Source of the DNA: Daphnia carinata
Lineage: Eukaryota
Reading direction: 5' to 3'
Assembly: GCF_022539665.2 (NCBI RefSeq)
Contig: NC_081331.1
Coordinates: 2,728,001 to 2,792,000 of the forward strand
DNA length: 64,000 nt
Shown here: positions 3,308 to 56,533 of the stretch, one piece after another
Layout of the letters: each line of letters starts with the position of its first letter
How positions within the stretch are numbered: position 1 is the stretch's first letter
Notes under the pieces: model-generated
What the model was told of the DNA's origin: nothing
What the model saw: only the letters and a program-made list of their open reading frames with translations
Database searches by the model: none
Translations under genes and position numbers: made by a program

Positions 3308-12445
<9,138 letters not shown>

Positions 12446-16406: not shown

Positions 16407-18919
16407 TTACAACTCATCCTTTGAGCGAGGAGGATTTCGCATGAAATCGACAATATCGTCTGCTTTTCGCTTCCTCTCGTAGGCCGATAAGTTGGAGCCT
16501 TTGTAGAAATAACGGATGGTTGGGAATCCACGAATTTCGAAGCGCGTTTGAAGACCAGTTTGAGCTGTGGCGTCAACGGTGACTAGCTCACCAGCAATAT
16601 TCATCTCTTTCATCTTCTTGGCTGCCAATGCGTAGTCCGACTTCATGGACTTGCAGTGACCACACCCTGTAATCAGAAATTAAACGTAAGACGATTTGAA
16701 ATTGGCAATTTTTCATGATCTTCCTATCTCCACACTTACAAGGAGCGTAAAACATAACAAGCACGGAATCTTTCTTTTTGACAAACTCGTCAAAGTTACT
16801 ATCTGTCATGTGGTGTAAATACGATGAACCATCCAAGCCAGTCCACTCTTCCTCTGGGCTAGGAGGTGCAGGAGGCAAACCATTTTTCGGGTTGTCAGGA
16901 TCCTCCATGAAAGAAACAAAGTCGGATTCCTAAAACATAATGACATATAAGATGAATTTGTTACGCTGAAATACACATTGGGAACAATTACTGATCTCCC
17001 TCCGCTGTAGGGTCGGCTGTTCTTTAAGTAATTGAAATAAATGAAGCTGGGAAATCCTTTGACGTCGTAAACTTTGCATAACGCCTGTTGGACCGTGCAA
17101 TCAACTGCAGCCAAGACGACTTTGTAGTCGTCTTTTAAACGTGCGGCAGCTGCTGTATATTCAGGCTTGGCTCGTTTACAATGCCCGCACCCTGAGACGA
17201 ACGCAGCAGAAACCATTTATCATACAATTGCCATACAAAAGTAGCTTAGAACTTACAAGGAGCATAAAACATGACCAATGCATGTTTAGTTTTCTTAAGT
17301 GTCGATTTGAAGTTTTCATCGTTCAAATGAACAACATCTGAAGGCTCTTCACTCCAAGGCTTCTCTGGTGGAGGAGGTGGAGGTGGTTCCTTAGGATCTT
17401 TCATGAAATCGACGATTGGACCCTCTTCCCTCAGGGAAACATCGAATGCCACTTCACCGTTCTTAAAATATTTGAGCGAAGGGTATCCACGAATCCCGAA
17501 GCGGCTACCGAGGCTACTCTCTTTTTGAGCATCAACGGCAACAAGTTTGCCAGCAACTCCCATTTCCTTGAGTTTGGTGGCTGCCGCCATGTACTCGGGC
17601 TACGTTATTTCAAATAATATCATGGATATAAAAATAGATAAATAATGGCAGATATACAGATTAAAACAAAAAATGGGAATCAAATTTACGAAAATATTTT
17701 ACCTTTATCTTTTTACAGTGGCCACACCAAGGGGCATAAAACATCACAAGCGCTGATGGTTCGCTTTTTAAAAATTCATCGAAGGTAGACGTAGTCAGGT
17801 GAACGACATCACTTTCCACGTCAGACCATTCGGGTTCCTTTGGCTTTTCCGTGGGTTGCGTAGGGTTTCGCATAAAGCTAACAATCCCATCTTTATTGTT
17901 GTCACCTTCGTAGCTGAATTTCATGGCACCATTTCTACAATCGCGACAAATTTGTTGAATCTATTAGGTAAAAAACAAAAAAAAAAGATCACTAACTTGA
18001 AGTATAAAAGAGTGGGAAATCCTGTGATGTTATATTGTTTTCTAACAACAGAATTCTCTGGCCGGTTAACATCAATGGCAGCAAGAATTGCCTGGCCCTT
18101 AAGGTCTGTAGCAGCTTGAGCATAATCTGGCTTCATTTTCTTACCTAGGAATTTCAAAGTAAAATCAAATCATCGAAAATAGCTCTTAGGATTTACTCAC
18201 AGTATCCACACCAAGGTGCATAGAACATAATCATGATGCCTTTTTTCTCCTCTTTTCGTAACAGTTTTGCTAGGCTCTTTAACAGAACAAATCATTTATT
18301 ATAATTTAGCACATGAGTAAATATATTCCACATACCGATGGGTTGGCTAGATGAAAGACATCTTGTGATGAATCTTCTTCTTCCCATGGGGCATCACCTG
18401 ATGGATCTTTCATAAAGGCAACAAATGAAGTGACCATCTCTTTCCTGTCGTAATCTTTGTGATATTCCCCATCCTTGTAATGTTTCAGTATATAAGGTTC
18501 CGGTTTTATCTTTAAACTCTTACAAAGCTTTTTCCCTTCACTGTGCAAGAAAAAATTAATAAAAATGATCATAGCTAAATTCAAGGCGCTATTCTTACCC
18601 TCCACAATCAACTGTAACAATTGTCCCAGTTCCACGAACTGCCTCAGACACTTCAGTTAATTGTTTGATGACATTGGAAGACTCTTTTAGAGATTTTGTA
18701 AAGCAAACTAATACACTTGTTCGCGTTTTTAGAAGTTTTTTGAACTCTTTCAAGTCAGAAACATCATCGAGGGCGGATTTCTGGCCGGCTTTTTTCCCGC
18801 AACAGCCAAAGACCAACATGGAAAACACCTATTTACGAATTTATCAATGATTAAATTGGTCCAAGTAAACAAAAGAAACATTATGAAAAAAAGCTTACAA
18901 AAAACACCGTGAACTTCAT
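16407..18919 (-). CDS. PDIA5: Protein disulfide-isomerase A5-like
   Basis: Repeated thioredoxin domains with MFYAPWCGYC/WCGHC motifs, an N-terminal non-catalytic Trx-like domain, a signal peptide and C-terminal SKDEL. ATG at 18919. Confidence 0.9.
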
Positions 18920-21848: not shown

Positions 21849-23461
21849 ATGTCATGTAATTATGCCGATGGGCTATCACCCTATGAGGATAAAGGAAAAC
21901 TTGGAATACCAGAGGTATTTCAAATTCCATACATATTGAATTTTGAATGGTTTTCATATTATGTGAGTATTTTGCCATTAATAGAAATTTGACAGCTTGG
22001 AAGAAGTTGCTGGAAAGATCTTAATTTTATCCAAATGGATAAAAGAAGCAAAGCATGTAGTCATGCATACAGGTGCTGGGATAAGTACACCAGCAGGAAT
22101 CCCAGATTTCAGGTATGCCAACAAGAAAATGATGGAAATTTTGTTATTGAAAGAAGGAAACAACAATGTATGTGTGTAAATTGTTTAACAGGGGCCCCAA
22201 AGGAGTGTGGACATTGGAGAAAAAAGGCTTGAAACCCCAAATAAATGTCTCGTTCGATGATGCAGAACCAACGTTCACACATATGGCAATTATTGCCTTA
22301 TTCCAGAAAAACTTTCTTCATTATGTAGTTAGTCAAAACATTGATGGTCTTCACCTAAAATCAGGACTGGATAGGTCAAAACTTTCTGAGCTTCATGGAA
22401 ATATGTTTATTGGCCAGTGTAGCCTTTGTTCTAGGTATGCCGAGATCAAATTCGGCCAGTCAAGAAGGATAAAAATCCTTTCAGTATGAAAATACCTTAC
22501 TTCTTTAATGAATTTTTTTTTTTACTTTCAAGACAGTACATTCGGCGAAAAGCTGTAACATCTGTGGGTCAAAGAGAATTGCCTGTTGACTGTCCTGCCC
22601 TGAAAGGAGGGAAACTGTCATGCAGAGGAAAGCTACATGACACAATACTAGATTGGGAACATGAACTACCAGTCAGGGATTTAGGATTGGCCGATATCCA
22701 TTCAAAGTTAGTAATCTGTCCTGCATTGTAATTTGATAGCATGCTAATAATTTCAATATTTTAACAAGTGTTGCGGATTTGAGTATTTGTTTGGGTACCA
22801 CATTACAAATTGTCCCCAGTGGTACATTGCCGTTAGCAACAAAGCGTAAAGGTGGCCGCCTTGTCATCATAAATTTACAACCAACAAAATGGGTATTTAC
22901 CACATACTATTACACATCTATAACAAGTGCATTGCTTTCTTTTTCTAGGATAAAAAAGCAGATCTTGTAATCAATACTTATGTCGATGACGTTATGAAAC
23001 TATTGCTCAAAGAATTAAACACTCCTTTCCTGCCTTACGATCCGAAATGCGATCCTACTCGGCAGCCACTTAGCGAAAAAGAAATGTGGCAAGAAGAATT
23101 TACTAAACGAGAATGGACGCTAGCACCGCGTGTTGTTAACACGACACGCAAACGACTCTCCCACTTGGAAACTAAAGCTCAGCCAAAACCGAAGAAGGTG
23201 AGGCAAAAACATCAAGAGGAACCGTCTCGCAGTCAATTAAATAGTCCAGGTAACTCTGGTTGTCGAGGCGAAGGCAGTAAACAAATTGATATGGCAGATC
23301 CCGTCAAAGTTGAGCCAGCTGAAGAACAGTGCAATGGATTGAAAGAGCAACAAAGAGGTGACTACATAGTTACTGAGCAGATCACAGGGAAGAAGTTAAA
23401 ACAAGAAACCATCCATTTGCAAAGCGAAAATGGGGAAGTTCAATCCACCACGAACTTATAG
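21849..23461 (+). CDS. SIRT6: NAD-dependent deacylase sirtuin-6
   Basis: [68 protein letters not shown] and NLQPT motifs across spliced exons. Confidence 0.95.
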
Positions 23462-25023: not shown

Positions 25024-26575
25024 ATGGGTCTGCTAGTTTTCGCTTTTCTAGCATCAATTGTGGGGCTTACTGCATCACAGAGTTTAGTATTAGTTGGCGG
25101 CGGTTTAACTGATGGCAATGCTGATGTTTGGAATAAAGTGATTGAACTAGCGGTACGAACGATCTAATCCATAAATATTCGATTTAGAATTATTTTATGT
25201 TTTTTTTAAAGGGAGGCCCAGGCGTAGCAAAGATTGGCGTTTTCACTACGGCGTCTTCGGATCCTATAGGGGCTGCGGCATATTATGTTGATATGTTCGT
25301 GAATACCTACGGAGCAGCCAGCGCAACGTACATTCCAGTAACAGAGAACAGCAATAATGCCGATGACCAATCCGTAGTCGAACTGGTCAGACAACAGACT
25401 GGCTTTTTCTTCGGTGGAGGCGATCAACTGAGGATTCTAACGGCCCTTCGACCTGGCGGCAGAGATACGCTTGTCCTTGCAGCACTGAAAGACATGTTAC
25501 AATCTGGTGCAGTGGTAGGAGGAACAAGTGCCGGAACGGCTTGTCAGGTATTCAAAAAACGAACTGGTGCTCATTTGCGATCAATTTTCACGGATTTTCA
25601 TTATGAAGAGAAAACTAAAGAAAATCTCCCTTTATTTTAGAGTGCTGCCGTTATGATTACGAGTGGATCTAGCTGGAATGCTTTGACCTACGGTGCTTTC
25701 AGTGGCGGACCTAAACCACTCAATCCAGACTATCTAACTTATGACGAAAACGGTGGTCTAGGTTTACTAACTGGTTGGGTTACAGATACCCACTTTAGTG
25801 AGCGAGGGCGGGAGGGTCGCCTCATTCGGTGGGTCTCAATACACCCTTAATCAAATTAAATCATCATACCTTATTTTTATCCAATTAGGTTACTGCAGGA
25901 TACTCGAAACCGTGACATCGGAACGACTAGAGGCTTTGGAGTGGACGAAGACATGGCTCTGGTGATAACCAATTTATACACACAACCTGTCGGAACGGTA
26001 TGTCAAAATAAAAATATTTTTAGGTTTCGTGAATATGCATAATTGATTTTATTTTAATTTAATAGGTTATTGGTACAAGTGGGGGCGTGTTTTTTGCTGA
26101 TGTCACTAGCACTGTTGTCGTTCCTTCCCCAAATACTTTCTACGCAGGAGTTTCTGCACATTATCTAACTCAAGATGATTCAATTGATCTTACAACTGGT
26201 AAGACTTTTCTTTCTCTGCCTCTCAGCTTGCTCGATTGAAATAAATGCGTAATTCATCATGCAGGAGACATCACATTTGCTCCGTGGAAATCTCCTCTAA
26301 AAGGCAACGAATATTATTTTAACGCTGAGGTATCAACAGACATTTTATCTGCAACGATGAACCGTCGATGGGCTAATGCTGCCGACCAGTTTTTTGACAA
26401 CCGAAGAGACGATTCTATTGCCCATTTGTCTTTCGAAAGAAACCCACAATATGAAGTCATCTTTGATCGTCTGGCGGGGGCCGGATATGGAGGACATTAT
26501 CCTAGCAATCCCAATAAATTTGTGGTGTCCTACAAAAACCTTCAGGTTGCAATTCATGAAAGCACAAATGCATAA
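25024..26575 (+). CDS. Secreted cyanophycinase-like serine peptidase (family S51), copy 1, about 401 aa
   Basis: Exons 25024-25152, 25212-25547, 25641-25828, 25889-25997, 26066-26198, 26265-26575 (1206 nt, open frame). Signal peptide, LVLVGGG, FFFGGGDQLR, GGTSAG, DTHFSERGREGRL, GFGVDED. Confidence 0.9.
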
Positions 26576-27236
26576 ATGTATCGAACTGTTGCATTTCCCG
26601 AACAGCGACACAATCGTTTATCGCGAGATCGGATAGGGCTTACCTTGAAATACAATTAACTGCATTAAAAATTCACATTGTAGCATCTCTTTCATAATAG
26701 TGTTTTTCGTAGGAACGCAGGCTAGTTTTGGAACGATACGCTTTCGAAATAATAAGTCTGGAAATTTCTACACAACCTTCCCTAACACATAAATAGTTTC
26801 TCACATGTCTGTTGATCTATCAGTCGTGTAAATAGAAAACCAGTTGAAATGATAGCTACGCAAACCATATAGGTCTGGACTTAACGATAACCACTGAGGC
26901 CGGAGAGTGTCACTCGGTAAATATGGACTCCGCTTTATTATTATTTTATCGTAGGCGTAAAAACAAACGTGACTGTGTGAATACATACGATTCGAGTTGG
27001 TTATCTTCCTGTACATGAACAAACATCATATTGTTTACTCCCTGTCAGATCAAAATAGGATTGAAATCTCTCAAACGTTATAAAACAAATTTAAAAATAG
27101 ACCGTTATATCTCTATTGTCAACATTACTCTCCGAAATTCTTCGACGTATAAAACATCAGAACAACACTAAGACAACGTAGAATCGTAAATTCACACGCT
27201 AAACGAGCGGTGGCGAGATATTTCTACTTGAGCAGC

Positions 27237-28795
27237 ATGGGTCTTTTATCTGTCACCTTCCTAACAACTCTTGTTGGTCTTGCTGCATCGCAGAGCGTTG
27301 TATTCGTTGGTGGAAATGAAAGCGACGCAAATGTGCCTCTTTGGGAGAGAGTGATTGAGCTTGCGGTAGGTGTAGTTAGAAAAAAAATATGCAATACCAT
27401 TTTGAATCACCCCTCCCCCTAACATTTCATCTTCTTTCAAAAAGGGAGGTAAAGGTGTAGCCAAGTTTGGTATTTTTGGAACTGCGTCATCAGATCCTGA
27501 AGGATCGGCAGCCTACTATATTGACTTGCTCGTGAATGTATACGGAGCAGCAAGCGCAACGTATATTCCAATCACGGAAACAAGTAACAATGCCGATGAT
27601 CCTGCCATGGTTGATTTAATACGACAACAAACGGCATTTTTCTTTGGCGGTGGCGATCAACTGCGAATTTTGAATGCAATTCGTCCCGCCGGTAGAGAAA
27701 CACTTGTTCTAGCTGCTATTAAGGAAATGCTAAAAGCCGGAGCAATGGTTGGCGGATCAAGTGCGGGCGCTGCTTGTTTGGTAAAGCTTTTTTGAAATAC
27801 TATAATTAAGGAAAAACGAGGTCATCTCGAAGTTAAAACCAAAATTTTCCATTTCCCACTCAGAGTGATACTGTCATGATTACGGGAGGTTCAAGCTACG
27901 ACGGGTTGATCTACGGGGCGTTTAGTGGAGGACCCAACTCGAATAATCCAGGAGATCTATCTTACGATGAACATGGCGGTTTGGGATTTTTAGCTGGCTG
28001 GGTTCCAGATACCCATTTCAGCGAGCGAGGTCGGGAAGCACGTCTTATTAGGTTGGTTCAAAAATGCTAATTCTTAATTTACACAATAATATAAAAGCTA
28101 ACTGTACCTTATAAAACAGGCTGCTCCAAGACACACGATACCGGGACATTGGGACACCTCGCGGTTTCGGCTTGGATGAAGATATGGCCCTTGTAATTAC
28201 TGATCTCTACACAAGACCTGTTGGAACAGTAATGAAATTAGCTCACATTTCACTATTTCAGTAATTAATGTTACTGTTGCGAAACAGGTAATTGGAACAA
28301 GTGGGGGAGTTTTTATAGCTGATGTCACAAATGTTATTGTTACACCTTCGGCAACTACGAACTATGAAGGAGTATCTTCCCATTACCTTACTCAAGATGA
28401 CACTATCGATCTTACCACTGGTAAAATTATTAAGTTTTACATGTAATTCCAGTTGCTTAATTTTTTATTTAACTGATGCCACAGGTAACGTTACATTTGC
28501 TAGCTGGAAAACTCCCCTGAAGGGCAACGAACAGTTTACCAATGCTGAAATCTCAACTGACATCTTGTCGTCAAAGCAAAGTCGTTCATGGGCATCTGCA
28601 GCAGCGCAGTTTTTTGACAACCAATTAGATGACACTGTTACCCATTTTACTTTCGAGAAAAAACCTCCATTTGAAGTAACTTTTAACCGCCTAAGCGGAG
28701 CTGGTTATAGGGGCCCTCTTCCAAGCGATCCTTTGACGTTCGTCGTGTCTCACGAAAATCTTCAAGTTGGAATTCGGGAAAGTATTGCGGTTTAA
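27237..28795 (+). CDS. Secreted cyanophycinase-like peptidase, copy 2
   Basis: Exons 27237-27365, 27445-27780, 27864-28051, 28120-28228, 28288-28420, 28485-28795, the same sizes as copy 1. Motifs GGGDQ, GSSAG, DTHFSERGREARL, GLDED. Confidence 0.9.
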
Positions 28796-29066
28796 AGGCG
28801 CCATAAAGATTAAAATTTCGAGTTTGTTATCTTACTGCGTACGAATAAACATAATATTGTTGACTCCCAGTCTGATAGAGTAGGACTAAAACCTTTCAAA
28901 GGTTATAAAACATTACTTCAAAAATAGACCGTTATATCTCTATTGTCAACATTACTCGCTGAAATTCTTCTACGTATAAAACAACGGCAACGCCAAAACA
29001 ACGTAGAATCGTACACTCACACGCTTTAGGAGTGGTAGCCAGATTTTTTTTACCAGAACAACCGTG

Positions 29067-30639
29067 ATGGGTCTTTTATCTCTCACCTTCCTAGCAGCTC
29101 TTGTTAGCCTTGCTGCGTCGCAAAGCGCCGTATTCATTGGCGGAAATTTAAGTGATGGAAATGCACCAATTTGGGACGCAGTGGTCGAGCTTGCGGTACG
29201 TGCAATTTCATGAAAAAGCAATTAAGCAATACCATTTCGATTTTTTCTTGTCTTAATATTTGTGCATTCCTTTAAAAGGGAGGAAAAGGTGTAGCCAAAT
29301 TCGGTATTTTCACTACTGCATCGGCAGATCCTGAAGGATCTGCAGCCTACTATATCGACATGCTCGTGAATGTATACGGCGCAGCAAGTGCAACCTATAT
29401 CCCAATCACGGAAACAAGTAATAATGCCGACGATCCTGCCATGGTTGATCTGGTAAAACAACAAACGGGATTTTTCTTTGGCGGTGGCGATCAGCTGAGA
29501 ATTTTGAATGCAATTCGACCTGCCGGAAGAGAAACGCTTGTTCTAGCTGCTTTAAGTGAAATGGTAAAAGCCGGGGCAACAGTTGGCGGAACAAGTGCTG
29601 GAGCTGCTTGTTTGGTAAAGCTTTTAAATACTATAAATTGAAGGGGAAAAAAAATTTAAACACGCAATGTCTTTAGTAATTTCAAACGAGATTTGCTCCA
29701 TCTTATTTAGAGCGATACTGTGATGATTACGGGAGGTTCAAGCTACGACGGGTTGATCTACGGGGCTTTTAGTGGAGGACCCAACTCGAATAACCCAGGA
29801 GATTTATCTTATGATGAACATGGAGGTTTGGGATTCCTAGCTCGTTGGGTTCCCGACACCCATTTCAGCGAACGGGGACGAGAAGCACGTCTTATTAGGT
29901 TGGCTCGTCAATACTAATCCCCAGTTTTAAACCAGTGATGCATAAAAATACTGTACCTTATAAAAACAGGCTGCTGCAAGACACGCGGTACCGCGACATT
30001 GGGACACCTTTGGGCTTCGGATTGGATGAAGATATGGCTCTTGTTGTTACTGATCTTTACACAAGACCTGTTGGAAAAGTAATTACATTAATATATATTT
30101 CACCATTTCTGCAATAAATGTTGCTTTTGGCTAACAGGTAATTGGTATAAGTGGGGGAGTGTTTATAGCGGATGTCACAAACATTATTGTTACACCTTCG
30201 GCAACTACGAATTACGAAGGAGTATCGGCCCATTACCTTACTCAAGATGACACTATCGATCTTACTACTGGTAAAAGATTAATTTATATTTAATTCCAGT
30301 TGTTAAATTTTTATAAATTATGCCACAGGTAACGTTACATTTGCTAGTTGGAAAACTCCCCTGAAGGGCAACGAACAGTTTACCAATGCTGAAATCTCAA
30401 ATGACATCTTGTCGTCAAAGCAAAGTCGTTCATGGGCATCTGCTGCAGCGCAATTTTTTGACAACCAATTAGATGACACTGTTACCCATTTTACTTTTGA
30501 AAAAAAACCTCCATTTGAAGTGACTTTTAACCGTCTAAGCGGAGCTGGTTATAGGGGGCCTCTTCCAAGCGATCCTTTGACCTTCGTTGTGTCTCACGAA
30601 AATCTTCAAGTTGGAATTCGAGAAAGTGGTGGGATTTAA
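29067..30639 (+). CDS. Secreted cyanophycinase-like peptidase, copy 3
   Basis: Exons 29067-29195, 29279-29614, 29711-29898, 29970-30078, 30138-30270, 30329-30639. Motifs GGGDQ, GTSAG, DTHFSERGREARL, GLDED. Confidence 0.9.
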
Positions 30640-31816
30640 AGGCGCCATAAGGATTAAACATAAAACTGCTAATGGTGGTTTGCAATGCTGTTCATGAAAT
30701 TGCATTTGATGCACAATTTTTGGTTAGAAATATAGAAATGGCATTCAAATTTCTATTGCTTGAATTGCAATCAAAATATTGTAGGTAAGGCAAACGCAGG
30801 GCTTTAAAAACGGCAAAAAAATTCAGTTATATTTCTAAAATGTAGAAACACCGTCCTTCATTTCTTATGTTTTGGAGACCTACGATATTTTCATTCGCAA
30901 TATTACGTTGAGTTCGACACAATCCACATGACTGAGACAAATAGCTTTGAAATAATCGGATCAGAAATTCCAACGTATGAGCCAGCAAAACGGATAGAAA
31001 ACAATTAGCAAATTGTTGCAACTGTTCATTGTTCAAAAGGCATGCATATGTAACCGAAAGATTTCGTTCAAACTGGGAAGTAATTTGTGACGTGGCAAAC
31101 ACCATAGATAATCCACCTAAAATTGCTACTTGTGAGATGTGTCTTTCAAGTTCAATAGTCCTACCATAAAAATTTGGGGTGCCACACCATTTTTATTAAC
31201 ACTCTATTTCCAGCTAATGTAAATTTCTGAAACTGGTTGATTCAAAGCCAAGCAACTGTCCAGTAATATGTTTTCATATAAAATTAAAACAAAGTACTAT
31301 GGCAGTCTTGCAACAATGAAATGGCTGACAATGTTACATGTTTTTGTTCGAAAAGAAAAGAAGAAGTAAGGCAAGAACGAATTACCTTTGATCGTTTAGT
31401 GAAGGTAGGTCTCGTGGGATGTATCAAAGGGGATGTTCTTCGAAGGTTCAGTTTTGTGGTTCACCAAATTGCGAAACCTCATTATGGAACTGTCGTAAAT
31501 CTGTACTTCTCGGCACGATATGCATTTCATCCCAAATAAACTATTTTGTGGTTGATCTCTACATTGTTACTTCATTGGCAATCACACAACGTGTCTTAAT
31601 TTCTACAGTGAATGTTAACAGAGTTTCATCAGCCAGCAAGTATCAGAAGTATGTGAATTCACAAAAGTCACATGGACAACTGAATTTACCCGGTTACAGG
31701 CTGAAGAAGAAACATTTTAATTTCCCCTCCCCCATCAACGCCATCTAGCGGTATTTGGAAAACATAACCGAATATTTGTTTTGACACAATACCCGAAGAT
31801 TTCCGTGTTTACCGCA

Positions 31817-34800
31817 ATGGATGCCAGCAAGGCAGAAAAGCTCGCCGCAGCGAAAAAAAAAGTATAAAAAGCACGATTTACTTACGATAAAATAACTTGT
31901 AGAAACTAAAGCTCGTATTCTTAATTCATTAATAGTTAAAACAGTTCCAACAAAAAGGAGGTTCGAAAGGTACTCCAAATGGTGGCCAGCTAAACTTGCA
32001 CCAGCAAGGTGAAGTAAATCAGTCATCAGCAGTAGAAACTAACATTCTCCATAATGAACCTGTGGAATCAAAGGCAAGCTTGGAAATCCAGCAAGAAGAG
32101 AAACATAGTTATGATAATACCAGAAATATTGAATTGCAGCAGGTCATTGAAACTTTGAGCAAAGAGAAAAATGACATTCTTTTATCCTACATGCAATCAA
32201 AAGATTTAGTTGAAGAACTTCAACTTAAATTAAACCAGGAGAGAGTATTGTTACAAGAAGAAAAAGCAAAATCCACCCAAGCATTGGAAACCATTTCAAC
32301 TCAAAGTTTACATGAAGAAGAACTGAAAAATACCGTTTCAATTTTGATAGAAGAAAAAAATGAGCTAGTTTTAGCTAATGTTCGAAGTGAAGAAAAAATA
32401 AAAAAACTAGAAGATGTCAAAGTTGACAATGAAAAAGAATTGGAAGTCGTAAAAATGTCTCTTTCATTGCTGCAATCTTCTGCTGCTAAAGAAACTGCAG
32501 AACTGCAGTCTTATTTATCTACTTTAACTAAAGATCATGAAAGAGTTAGTCAAGAACTAAATTTAAAAGATCAACTTTACAATGAAGTAAATGAGGAACT
32601 CAAAGAGCTTCAAATGCGTCAAAACAATCAAGCGGCTGAACTCAATCGCAGAGAAAACATTATCAATGAACTAAATCTTCAAATCGAGTTGCTCAACGTG
32701 AATATGCAACAGGTAAATCTATTCATTGTAAATCGCAAAAACGTCTTTTATGGACACCACCTATTTATCACGTTGCTTTTAGTTGAAAAATGCAGGGCCC
32801 CCGACGGTCGATCAAAGCCTTGAAAAAATGCAAAAAGAAAATGATAAGTTACAAGAAGAAATAGTGGATTTACGGGAGCAGTTAAAGACGCTAAATGTAG
32901 AAAAAGATGTTCTATCGCAACAGTATCAACAATACATTCTTCGACTGAACGGGCAAATTCGCACCATTAGTTCACAGGTATTTTATGATGAAAGCATATT
33001 GTTCAAAGCAAAGCATCAACAAGTATATAAAAGACTAACGTGGAAGAACGATTGTAGGCAGAGTCCTTGGCCATTGAGAAAAGGAATGTAGAGGCTACTT
33101 TGGAGACAAAGAAAGACGAATTGGCAGAGCTCGAGGCGACAATTGTGGCCCTGAAAATGGAACAAAATACTGGGCCCTTGTCTCGCACATCGAATGAATT
33201 GGCTACGCCTAGCGAAATTCTTCCCTCTCCACAATCCGCGTCCCAGCTTGATGAAGAAATTGTCGTGTTAAAAACGCAAATTGCGGAATTGGTTTGAATT
33301 CTTTCCTCTTTAATTACTTATTCAGTTTTTTAATGACCTTCTGTACAACAGAGTTTGAATAATGAAGAACTGGTCAAACTGGCATTGGAGAAGGAATCTC
33401 GGATTCAAGAGCTGGAAATCCGTATAGATCGCATGCAAAGTGAGTTGAACGTGGCAACTACCAATCAGGATCATGGCGAAAGGGAGAAACTTCTTCAAGT
33501 ACCGTGCATTCATTGCTTATGTTTATCCAGTTATTTGACGAAATTCTTGCAAATTTGAAAGGCTATGCAAAGTGACAAATCTACAGCCTCCCGTGCTATT
33601 GCCCAGAATCGTCAGCTGAAACTACAGCTAGAAGAACTGGAAAAGGCTTTTATCCAACTTGTAAAATATGCTTTGGTTATCTCTTTAGTCAAAAGGGCCA
33701 TATTCATTGATTTGTTAAACCAATTTAGAGTAATGACAAACTTGTGCTCACGGAGGAATCTCAGACAATGGCTCGACAAAATAAGGAAATGAGCGAAAAG
33801 TTACTGATTTTGGAGCCGGAGGTTGTGCAGTTAAGGTTCGGCTACTAATAGCGGTGCTGGATTGGAACGTTGTAAAGCTTGTTTTTAATTATTACAGACA
33901 GCAGGTTGACGATTTGGCTGGTCAGCGAAACGCCACAATTTACTGGAGACAAGAGTTAGAGGAAGCTCACGTATTTAGCGTCATGTTCTGGTTACTACTT
34001 CGTTCAAAGACTAATTATTTTGTTTTTCAGGAAAGAATCCAGGCACTGTCGCATCAGAATGCAGAACTGAAAAAACGTGTCATTTGGAATTTGAATCAAG
34101 CACCTGCCCGAGGCAGCCGTAAACAGCGGCGTAACAACGAAGAAATCAATGAGGACCGTTCAGATTCACCTTCCTCGTCTGAAAATGGTAAAACCCTTTC
34201 TTTAAGATACCTGGTGCTATTTTGTATTTTATGTAACAATGTCTAGAAGGAGACAGTGACTGGATTCCTGCTGAAGAACATCAGAAACTCCTCTTTCACT
34301 TCGGTCAATTAGAACAGCGACTAGAACGTTCCATAGCTACTGTATCAACTTTGACAGAAGAAAAGCAAAAACTAGAACACTTGGTTCTACAGCTTCAAAG
34401 TGAAACTGAAACCATTGGTTAGTTGTACTTGCAACAAATTATCAACAGGTTTCAGGGCGGAAAATGATTCAATATCTTATTTTTTACAATCAAATTTTCC
34501 AGGCGAATACGTTAGTCTTTACCAAGTGCAGCGTGGCCTATTGAGTAGGCGTGCCGAACAGTTATCTGCTGAGCGTCAGAAACTGAAGGAGAGAATTTTG
34601 AAGTTGACTATTCTTTTACCTTGCTTGGCACCCCAATTGAAGAATTCACCCGAATGGTTGCAATTGCAGCCCGAGCCGGAAACGATAGCCAATTCAGAAG
34701 ATGGGTTGAGTGTTACCATTCGTAACGAAACAGAAGCTTTGTCTGACGTGGACCCTACCTTGGAACACACAGTTTCCCAAATCATCGATGTTTTGTTAGA

Positions 34801-34939
34801 AATCACAAACTGCACATTACCAACCAGCGAAACTCTGACGCAGACTGATCTCTATCCCTTGGAAGACCGAATTCGTAAGCCGAACGAGAATTTTCATCCA
34901 TGTTGGCCTATGTATTCAGGAAGAATCATTAACATTTGA
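31817..34939 (+). CDS. GOLGA2: Golgin subfamily A member 2 (GM130)-like
   Basis: N-terminal KLAAAKKK|LKQFQQK, long coiled coil, MQSDKSTASRAIAQNRQLKLQLEELE, LQSETETIGEYVSLYQ and a C-terminal FHPCW...IINI tail. Confidence 0.85.
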
Positions 34940-35087: not shown

Positions 35088-35983
<896 letters not shown>

Positions 35984-36154
35984 CTTGATACCTACACGAA
36001 TTAGATACAAAAAAAAACAGATGAATAACACAGCAAACTACCTTCGCGTACTAAAAGTAATTTTATGTCTAAGAAAATCCAATGGTGAACACGTACAAAA
36101 TATAGTTTCGTCGATGACTGCAGATAACAGGCAAAGAAATCTTACCTCGGTCTC

Positions 36155-53121: not shown

Positions 53122-54207
53122 ATGTACTCCAAAATGGCAGACCAAATATCCATTTTTTCTCGCGAATTCTACGACTTGATTCAAACTCCTGAATACTTAT
53201 GGGTATACAACTTATCGTACGCCACAACCACTCAAGAAATCGTCAACTATTTCGAAGAGCTGGTAGGGCCGATAGAGTTTTTCGCTATGCACTTGGACAA
53301 GGGCACCGATTTCCTATGCAAAGCTGAAATTCTTTTCCACCGCGCAGAGGACGCCCGCAGAGCCCTCTTACTCTACGACGGAACACAGTTTGATGGTCGT
53401 CAAATGGTTCTCAAACTCCTTGTGGACGGCCGTCAAATTCATCCCGAACAAATCGTGTTCCCTGGCTCAATTATCCTCTTGCCAGTTGTTCCAAGCGGAC
53501 GACTTTTACCTGATGATGTTACCCGGGATTTTTCAAGTGATACCAACTTTGACCAGTCCAGCTGTGAAGGAACATATATGTCTCTTTCAGAAGGTAGGTC
53601 AGATGTTAGTTCACTCGAAAAACCAAAGGGCGATCGTAATTTGGAGAAGACATTCCTACCATCCGATATCTCTTGTGAAATTGATGACTACTACTGCTTG
53701 CTTGTTTATAACCTGCAATATTCCGTCAAAGGAGAAGAGCTACTAGATCATTTTGAGATGATGGCAGGACCGGTAGAATCCGTTGGTATGTACCTTGATG
53801 ACAAAGGCTTCTTGTGCGGTAAAGCCAAAATAGTTTTTCGTCATCCTGAAGACGCTCAAAAAGCTCTAGTATGCTGCGATGGAACAGTTCTAAATGGTCG
53901 TCGGATTCATCTCAAACTCTACGTGAACGGCAAGCGCTTACGCGTCAATCAACTTGCTCTTCCACATTCAAGTTCCGCAGAGGATTGGATTCGTCCACAT
54001 GTACCTTTCGTTTCTTTGCCGTCGCCAAACTCCATGACTGAGTATTTTCCTGATGACCCAATCCTTGACTCATTCACTATGCCCACCATCAACGAAGGAA
54101 CGGACCAGAGACCAGTTCATCCTCAGGGGCCAGGGTATCCACCTTTCCTGCCGTTGGTATTTGTCAAGGATTGCGTCCGGCCATACGTGACACCTGTCTT
54201 TGAATAG
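53122..54207 (+). CDS. Intronless protein with two ALYREF/THOC4-like RRM domains
   Basis: A single 361-aa ORF with two repeats of L.VYNL.Y....E....F....GP.E...M.LD.....KA.I.F...EDA..AL...DGT...GR...LKL. TATA-like tatataag at about 53063. Confidence 0.75.
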   Translation: MYSKMADQISIFSREFYDLIQTPEYLWVYNLSYATTTQEIVNYFEELVGPIEFFAMHLDKGTDFLCKAEILFHRAEDARRALLLYDGTQFDGRQMVLKLLVDGRQIHPEQIVFPGSIILLPVVPSGRLLPDDVTRDFSSDTNFDQSSCEGTYMSLSEGRSDVSSLEKPKGDRNLEKTFLPSDISCEIDDYYCLLVYNLQYSVKGEELLDHFEMMAGPVESVGMYLDDKGFLCGKAKIVFRHPEDAQKALVCCDGTVLNGRRIHLKLYVNGKRLRVNQLALPHSSSAEDWIRPHVPFVSLPSPNSMTEYFPDDPILDSFTMPTINEGTDQRPVHPQGPGYPPFLPLVFVKDCVRPYVTPVFE

Positions 54208-55042: not shown

Positions 55043-56533
55043 TCAAGCTTCGACAGGTTTTATGGTAGCCAGCATATTACGGTAAGAAGCTACGTAGGTT
55101 TTCTTTGGATCATTTGGGATATCTGCTCCAAATCCGATAGCTTCCAACCGGTCGAAAAACACCTGGAAACGAGGAACCACAGAAGACAAAGATGTGCATG
55201 TGACGTTGACCTCTTTGCAGTCAATCAAACGTCGGTTTGTCTGACGCCACTCTGATGGGGTCTCAGCAGAAAAAATATCAGAAGATGGAATTGCATCTTC
55301 GAACCACTCTTCGCCAGCTATTGGGATTTTCCAGCTTGCATAAGTGGCCTCTCCTATTGATACAGTAGTCAGGAGTGAGCATAAATGCATCACCATTTCG
55401 AATTGTTTTAAACCTTATCTCAAAAAATATAACAGTTTACCTGAAGTAAGATCGATGGTATCATTTACAGTAAAGAAAGAAAATGGAATTTTTTCATAGG
55501 TCGCTGTAGAACTAGATTCGGCAGGCACAGTTGACACGTCAACGAAAAATACACCACTTAATGATACTTCGGCAGTAATGACCTAGCAAAAACAATAACA
55601 ATTATTAAACGAAAAATAATTTGACAAATGAGACTTCCAAATCAAATGCAACCATGATAAAGACATACTTTTCCGACTGGTTTAGACAACGGATTAGAAA
55701 TTACTAAAGCCGTATTTTCATCAACACCAAGCCCTTTCGGTGTGCCAATGTATGGCAGATCCCTTGAATCGAGTAGCGTACGAATCAATCGCATTTCCCG
55801 TCCTTGATCGCTGAAATGGCTATCCAATACGTAATTATTTAAGAAGCCCAATCCACCATGTTTGCAATAAGCGAGTGGAAACTGTTTCCCCGAGAAAGAT
55901 CTTTGATATTTGGTTCCCTGTACTAGGGCATTTATGGAATCGCCACTGTGAGTTACCACCGAATTTCCCTATTTAAAAAATGTATACACGTAAATTTTCG
56001 AAAATAAGCCTACAGAATTCTATAGTATACCATAATTGCGCTGTTTCCTGCTACCATTCCTCCGTTGCTCATGACAGATTTGATGGCTTTCAATACCAAA
56101 CTATCTACCCCGGAAGGACGGAGTACGTTAACCAAATTCGATTTCTCCGAGTCATCGACCAAAAAAATGCCTGTGTAGCTCCTTACTCGATCGGCTACCT
56201 CTTGAGATGAAGAATCAGCCTTTTCCAAGGAGATGATGGAAGCTGCTTTAGCTCCATATATCCGGACGAAGTTATCAACGGCTTTAGCGCCTTCCGCGCC
56301 ATTTTTTGGGGACGCCAAAATTACTCCAATATTAGCTATACCTGGCCCTCCCTTTCAAAACAAATTAGTATCGTCAAAAATAAGAAATTTTAAACATTTT
56401 AAGTCCCTACAGCTTTTTCAACCATTGTTGTCCAAATGCCAGCATTGTCGTCCTTTAGATTTCCACCTATGAGTACCAAACTTTGCGCAATAGCAACACC
56501 TGGTAGGATGAGAAGAAACGCAACAAAATACAT
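55043..56533 (-). CDS. Secreted cyanophycinase-like protein, divergent copy 4, about 398 aa
   Basis: Exons 56533-56411, 56351-56031, 55968-55669, 55582-55441, 55353-55043. Signal peptide, QSLVLIGGNL, GNSA, LDSHFSDQGREMRL, GLGVDENTAL. Four intron positions are shared with copies 1-3. Confidence 0.85.

Follow-up and report, generated by a model that had tools for sequence, protein, structure and literature searches.

The tandem array and its encoded proteins

A 64,000-nucleotide stretch of the Daphnia carinata genome (RefSeq assembly GCF_022539665.2, contig NC_081331.1, positions 2,728,001 to 2,792,000 of the forward strand; hereafter the window, in which all positions are counted) holds an array of three head-to-tail genes on the plus strand, g1 to g3, for cyanophycinase-like proteins. 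A coordinate search resolved each gene into six exons of 129/336/188/109/133/311 nucleotides with open frames, encoding 401 amino acids, and all 15 introns (58–96 nucleotides) are bounded by GT..AG:

25024..26575, plus strand: gene 1 (g1), cyanophycinase-like, probably CphE-type, 401 amino acids, identical to P0219; exons 25024-25152, 25212-25547, 25641-25828, 25889-25997, 26066-26198, 26265-26575
27237..28795, plus strand: gene 2 (g2), 401 amino acids, identical to P0005; exons 27237-27365, 27445-27780, 27864-28051, 28120-28228, 28288-28420, 28485-28795
29067..30639, plus strand: gene 3 (g3), 401 amino acids, identical to P0327; exons 29067-29195, 29279-29614, 29711-29898, 29970-30078, 30138-30270, 30329-30639
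26991..30658, plus strand: youngest tandem duplication, units 26991-28814 and 28817-30658, 84% nucleotide identity over 1863 alignment columns

The spliced products match the RefSeq proteins P0219, P0005 and P0327 letter for letter, and the exon models therefore agree with an independent annotation. These entries carry the label 'cyanophycinase-like [Daphnia carinata]', so automatic annotation of the genes already exists, as an initial reading of the DNA (the original prediction) had guessed; its three intact six-exon GT-AG genes of these exon sizes were likewise recovered. At the protein level, identity is 91% between g2 and g3 and 69% between g1 and either of them. The match between the g2 and g3 duplication units takes in upstream DNA and introns (dS between g2 and g3 = 0.34), and the three head-to-tail copies with this 1.86-kb duplication bear out the tandem amplification that had been proposed. 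Purifying selection acts on g1–g3 (ratio of nonsynonymous to synonymous substitution rates, dN/dS, 0.13–0.14 in all three pairs; Nei-Gojobori). D. magna likewise has an array, seen as consecutive locus tags.

Cyanophycin is a polymer in which bacteria store nitrogen. It resists common proteases, and CphE is an enzyme secreted by prokaryotes (PMC7318851 and PMC3235067). PMC3235067 lists the functional residues of CphB (Gln101, Ser132, Asp172, Gln173, Arg178, Arg180 and Arg183) and of Pseudomonas alcaligenes CphEal (Q136, S171, D222, T223, H224, R228, R230, R233 and E251, with Thr replacing CphB Gln173), and describes the pocket of a Gln and three Arg as critical for cyanophycinase activity. All nine CphEal residues align to g1–g3 (numbering in the CphEal sequence P0051 is offset by one from that paper), as Q115, S149, D204, T205, H206, R210, R212, R215 and E238 in each protein. 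By those positions, the Ser-His-Glu catalytic triad corresponds to S149, H206 and E238, and the β-Asp-Arg pocket (CphB Gln101, Asp172, Arg178, Arg180 and Arg183) to Q115, D204, R210, R212 and R215. The motifs on which the original prediction had relied (GGGDQ, G(T/S)SAG, DTHFSERGRExR and G(V/L)DED) occur in all three proteins. Among 43 named animal proteins, the full Q-S-D-H-R-R-R-E set is present in 32 and the triad in 38.

All three proteins pass the gathering cut-off of Pfam Peptidase_S51 (PF03575; 35.8, 31.9 and 29.7 bits against 23.9); the curated cut-off of the cyanophycinase equivalog TIGR02069 (126.6 bits) is exceeded by g3 (128.1) but not by g1 (117.9) or g2 (115.8). Among reference proteins, the characterized P. 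anguilliseptica CphE scores 128.0 bits, and P. alcaligenes CphE (P0051), at 116.8, also lies below the cut-off. An AlphaFold model of g1 (mean predicted local distance difference test, pLDDT, 94.6) superposes on the cyanophycinase 3EN0 with Z 31.4 and a root-mean-square deviation of 2.1 over 258 aligned residues (Foldseek E 2e-17). The S51 cyanophycinase assignment of the original prediction, with its triad and its Gln and Arg pocket, is thus well supported by the S51 profile, the residue alignment and the modelled fold.

The same comparisons bear on whether g1–g3 might instead be PepE-like α-aspartyl dipeptidases, the kind of S51 enzyme that animals are known to have. PepE (Salmonella PepE; Xenopus PepE, 7FFP) has the MEROPS S51 fold and Ser-His-Glu chemistry in common with g1–g3, falls in the same Pfam family (PF03575), and its Xenopus structure is among the fold matches of the g1 model. 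It is, however, shorter, acts on a different substrate and is 14–20% identical to the Daphnia proteins, with Z scores of 14.9–19.1 (19.1 for Xenopus PepE) against 31.4 for CphB. No PepE profile matched full-length g1–g3 at E 0.01 (single exons reached about 15 bits, where the threshold of NF003642 is 156 bits), and g1–g3 have the three-Arg motif and the length of CphE. We consequently rejected a PepE identity, which we regard as extremely improbable.

Within the cyanophycinases, the proteins most resemble bacterial CphE (P. anguilliseptica BI CPHE_PSEAG, P0195; P. alcaligenes DIP1 CphEal), which has about 400–420 amino acids, an N-terminal signal, the same triad and Q/D/R/R/R pocket, Thr before the catalytic His and a C-terminal extension, and with which g1–g3 share 38–39% identity over about 365 amino acids. 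CphB (Synechocystis PCC 6803; PDB 3EN0 and 7UQW) has the fold of g1 over residues 16–304 and the same catalytic and pocket residues, but is a cytosolic protein of about 270 amino acids with about 25% identity, with Gln173 in place of Thr and without the C-terminal 95 or so residues. Length, C-terminal extension, Thr205 and residue set make assignment of g1–g3 to the CphE type well supported at the sequence level, and the identity to Pseudomonas CphE and the Thr at CphB Gln173 agree with the CphE rather than CphB likeness first proposed. The Daphnia genes differ from bacterial CphE in containing introns, in their tandem expansion, in having degenerate paralogues and in forming a separate clade outside it. 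Another eukaryotic, predicted secreted homologue, the fungal cyanophycinase of Pyrenophora and Trichoderma, differs from them in being reported as a horizontally transferred gene with a top match in Spirosoma (PMC3612039). Searches of the PDB returned no CphE-type structure. Separately, two bacterial proteins among the profile matches (P0340 and P0344; 844–1001 amino acids) carry two CphE-type domains in tandem.

A hydrophobic N-terminus (Kyte-Doolittle 11-mer maximum 2.1–3.0) precedes Q19-S20 in g1–g3 and lines up with the CphEal leader, and no C-terminal retention signal or membrane anchor was seen in the three proteins. Residues 1–18 are thus likely to be a signal peptide, as originally claimed, and g1–g3 are likely to be secreted. 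N-glycosylation sequons occur in g2 and g3, and none in g1. The C-terminal 95–100 amino acids align with bacterial CphE and have no counterpart in CphB; folded in isolation, this domain gave pLDDT 63, a top structural match of Z 5.2, weak PAS-like matches and a best Atlas value of 0.84.

Degenerate paralogues and neighbouring genes

A tblastn search of the window revealed a fourth paralogue, which the original prediction had overlooked:

55043..56533, minus strand: gene 4, degenerate paralogue, 398 amino acids; five exons, 56533-56411, 56351-56031, 55968-55669, 55582-55441, 55353-55043, lacking the third intron

Four of the five intron positions of g1–g3 recur in gene 4, which is 40% identical to g1 and 74% identical to D. 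pulex P0271 and is conserved in D. pulex and D. pulicaria. Its Ser-His-Glu triad is intact, but neither the GGGDQ motif nor the first of the pocket Arg residues survives, leaving the pocket incomplete; judged by its residues, gene 4 may possibly be an enzyme of changed specificity or a pseudo-enzyme. Still further removed is a fifth Daphnia paralogue (P0368 in D. magna; P0475 and P0476 in D. carinata), located outside the window. It lacks the catalytic Ser and Glu, groups with sequences from Malacostraca (99/85; IQ-TREE, 73 rows) and is found on many short Logan contigs; its D. carinata copies lie on a contig equal in length to the one that carries the array. Copy number beyond the window is based on database proteins. 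Outside Daphnia, the amphioxus proteins P0126, P0134 and P0136 have Lys for the first pocket Arg, and the Branchiostoma floridae protein has a hydrophobic C-terminal tail, potentially a membrane or glycosylphosphatidylinositol anchor.

Two plus-strand genes flank the array:

21985..23461 (approximate extent from exon open reading frames, ORFs), plus strand: SIRT6 gene, upstream neighbour, named from PDB matches
31815..34939 (approximate extent), plus strand: golgin-like long coiled-coil gene, downstream neighbour

The top PDB matches of the upstream gene are human SIRT6 (E 1e-27) and then SIRT7 (1e-22), in line with the SIRT6 flank first described. The other proposed flank, GOLGA2, stands as a coiled-coil, golgin-like gene, which we presume from its termini to be GOLGA2; the name itself went unconfirmed, with no golgin match in Pfam for any of the three exon ORFs tried. 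Bacterial contamination as a source of the array was ruled out because the genes contain introns, adjoin SIRT6 and have orthologues in other Daphnia species, and the original prediction was right to call them animal genes.

Several further genes were seen in the window. A ribosomal protein L10e gene (35088-36000, minus strand) lies directly behind the golgin-like gene. At 53122-54207 (plus strand), between gene 4 and what we take to be an MCM helicase-like gene, a single 361-amino-acid ORF has two repeated segments, which we take to be RRM-like, and is intronless in an intron-rich region; it is possibly a retrocopy. A minus-strand gene at about 3600-8700 has Gly-X-Y exons and a C-terminal propeptide-like exon, and presumably encodes a fibrillar collagen, and exons of CGHC/CGYC type at about 16500-18700 (minus strand) presumably belong to a multi-thioredoxin, protein disulfide isomerase-like gene.

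Distribution and origin of the family

The distribution of homologues was drawn from three word-indexed searches (best 120 of 303, 1152 and 373 matches) and cluster look-ups; scans of prokaryote genomes and metagenomes covered 6 and 7 of 64 database parts, respectively. Among the matches listed, named animal homologues come from at least six phyla: Arthropoda (five Daphnia species, Artemia, Petrolisthes, Eriocheir and Hyalella, with a EukProt 'Tk' gene read as copepod), Mollusca (12 genera, comprising bivalves, gastropods and a chiton), Annelida (Capitella), Echinodermata (Amphiura), Hemichordata (Glandiceps and Ptychodera) and Chordata (three Branchiostoma species and two lampreys). Aquatic animals that filter their food or feed on deposits or films make up most of the named carriers. 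Protist homologues were found in Pelomyxa schiedti, Willaertia magna, Pedospumella encystans and two MMETSP transcripts. The matches listed included no names of insects, nematodes, jawed vertebrates, cnidarians or fungi, which does not prove that these groups lack homologues. Uninterrupted 401-amino-acid orthologue ORFs on Logan contigs of 1.3–1.7 kb point to spliced transcripts and to transcription in relatives.

The family was placed with three trees: FastTree on 236 rows (302 were chosen for their length or label and then thinned at 80% identity), IQ-TREE with LG+G4 on 73 rows and a rapid analysis of 39 rows under C20. In the 73-row set, 7 of 31 'animal' and 13 of 18 'protist' rows are unnamed and were assigned after inspection of the 236-row tree; in the 39-row set, 1 of 16 animal rows is unnamed. 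A single animal clade was recovered in all three (FastTree 90; IQ-TREE 81/98; C20 approximate likelihood-ratio support, SH-aLRT, 97), and the 73-row tree contains Mollusca (100/100), Branchiopoda (100/99), Branchiopoda with Malacostraca (100/99) and bacterial CphE as its own clade (88/94). Placement of the root varied with sampling: with three short CphB-type outgroups, bacterial CphE falls among the protist rows (90/97, 73-row tree), and when bacteria are sampled more widely the eukaryote-side rows form one group (FastTree 95, 236 rows).

The original prediction had envisaged horizontal gene transfer (HGT) of a bacterial gene, with nesting inside bacterial CphE and a patchy animal distribution, followed by intron gain; the recipient could be Daphnia, the branchiopods or the animal stem. 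Consistent with such a transfer, full-length bacterial CphE is 38–40% identical to g1, no insect, nematode, jawed-vertebrate or cnidarian name is listed, and a bacteria-to-fungus cyanophycinase transfer has been reported (PMC3612039). However, lamprey, oyster and crab homologues are nearer to g1 (44–45%), bacterial CphE stands apart, and approximately unbiased (AU) tests on the 39-row set under LG+G4 rejected both a grouping of branchiopods with the sampled bacterial CphE (difference in log-likelihood 130, P = 0.00015) and one of animals with it (difference 35, P = 0.0077). A constraint joining every eukaryote-side row in a single clade was not rejected (P = 0.46). The AU tests were run after the trees had been seen, with the two rejected constraints representing the prior hypothesis of the original prediction. 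Because homologues occur broadly, in six phyla, fall in a single animal clade and are separated from bacterial CphE by the AU tests, transfer at the level of Daphnia is unsupported; a recent transfer is largely refuted, and we regard HGT from bacterial CphE as very unlikely, be it into Daphnia, into branchiopods or into the animal stem. Such breadth among metazoans is the outcome that the original prediction had said would refute HGT. Trees and AU tests indicate instead that the family is old in animals and that its nearest sampled relatives are protists, and for the animal clade vertical descent from the last common ancestor of bilaterians, or from an earlier one, is likely. A still earlier transfer, predating animals, may have occurred. 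Two metagenome loci, L087 (chrysophyte-like) and L092 (copepod-like), have one GT-AG intron each, at positions not common to Daphnia; these introns argue for a eukaryotic source of those clades and add nothing on common origin.

Potential role in cyanophycin digestion

These are members of a known and automatically annotated enzyme family, and the animal members appear uncharacterized: no literature on animal-encoded cyanophycinase, including in Daphnia, was found in a search outside which most subscription journals lay, and an earlier mention is possible. By analogy with CphB and CphE, we consider it fairly probable that g1–g3 digest cyanophycin taken in with bacterial and cyanobacterial food (that the proteins are secreted, what they act on, in which tissue and with what benefit to nutrition is here what we infer). 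After cleavage of an 18-residue signal peptide, Q115, D204, R210, R212 and R215 would grip the terminal β-Asp-Arg unit of cyanophycin, and S149, activated by H206 and E238, would cut the backbone α-amide bond, freeing β-Asp-Arg dipeptides; a separate isoaspartyl dipeptidase, of the host or a gut microbe, would then be needed for free Arg and Asp. This scheme follows bacterial CphB and CphE (PMC10206079 and PMC9974463), and animal homologues of IaaA are mentioned in PMC10206079. The amplification in Daphnia and the feeding habits of most carriers would suit a digestive role. In abalone, a 'Cyanophycinase' transcript is among size-related candidates from whole soft tissue (reads per kilobase per million mapped reads 1.77, 1.23 and 12.55; the available part of PMC4661900 does not give the meaning of the columns).

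Several points weigh against this digestive reading. Hydrolysis of cyanophycin by the animal members is argued from CphB and CphE, the scores of g1 and g2 lie just below the TIGR02069 cut-off, and some carriers, such as Babylonia and Solemya, are not obvious consumers of cyanobacteria. According to PMC5399006, mice digested cyanophycin only when enzyme was added, and absorbed β-Asp-Arg without its Arg becoming bioavailable, so that the second, dipeptide step cannot be taken for granted. As for ancestry, bootstrap support for the animal clade is 81% in the 73-row tree, where deep relations are not settled, deuterostomes are not united and copepod-like rows stand apart from other crustaceans, unlike the species tree. 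Finally, S51 enzymes have changed substrate before (PepE and MccG; PMC9239234), and the conserved pocket could serve another β-aspartyl substrate.

In one alternative, CphE chemistry was kept but the main substrate is another β-aspartyl or isopeptide bond, for example in host proteins that have suffered damage, in a structural protein or in some other polymer made by microbes, and cyanophycin would be no more than a side substrate. In favour of this, the family persists in six phyla whose diets differ, the S51 family offers precedents for such a shift (PMC9239234), and pockets do vary, with Lys for the first Arg in amphioxus and alterations in several cladoceran paralogues. Set against this, 32 of the 43 named animal proteins have the whole pocket of a Gln and three Arg. 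We know of no alternative substrate, and consider this explanation rather unlikely. A role in detoxifying microcystin was set aside: microcystin holds an iso-linked MeAsp-Arg that is D-configured and offers no α-amide at that Asp.

Cyanophycin could also be the substrate elsewhere than in the gut lumen, cleaved in lysosomes or phagocytes, haemolymph or mucus as engulfed bacteria are cleared, and serving intracellular digestion or defence instead of nutrition. Signal peptides also lead to lysosomes, g2 and g3 have N-glycosylation sequons, and the protist homologues occur in Pelomyxa, Willaertia and Pedospumella, which engulf their prey, and this suggests a food-vacuole origin. The lack of a sequon in g1 and a tandem amplification that resembles the digestive-enzyme arrays of this filter feeder speak against this alternative, which we hold to be improbable.

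If g1–g3 do digest dietary cyanophycin, the ability may be an ancient eukaryotic one, a broader proposal that we offer only tentatively. A secreted CphE-type enzyme would have been present in bacteria-eating protists before animals, kept from Daphnia to oysters, amphioxus and lampreys as aquatic filter, deposit and film feeders, lost, for instance, in insects and jawed vertebrates, and expanded in cladocerans to at least five genes, some of them non-catalytic and perhaps able to bind the polymer. Grazers would then tap a nitrogen store regarded as accessible to bacteria only. Were invertebrates and lampreys to make an enzyme of their own for cyanophycin, grazers would have direct access to nitrogen stored in cyanobacterial blooms, with consequences for the food quality of cyanobacteria for Daphnia, for the nutrition of bivalves and for cyanophycin as a component of aquaculture feed.

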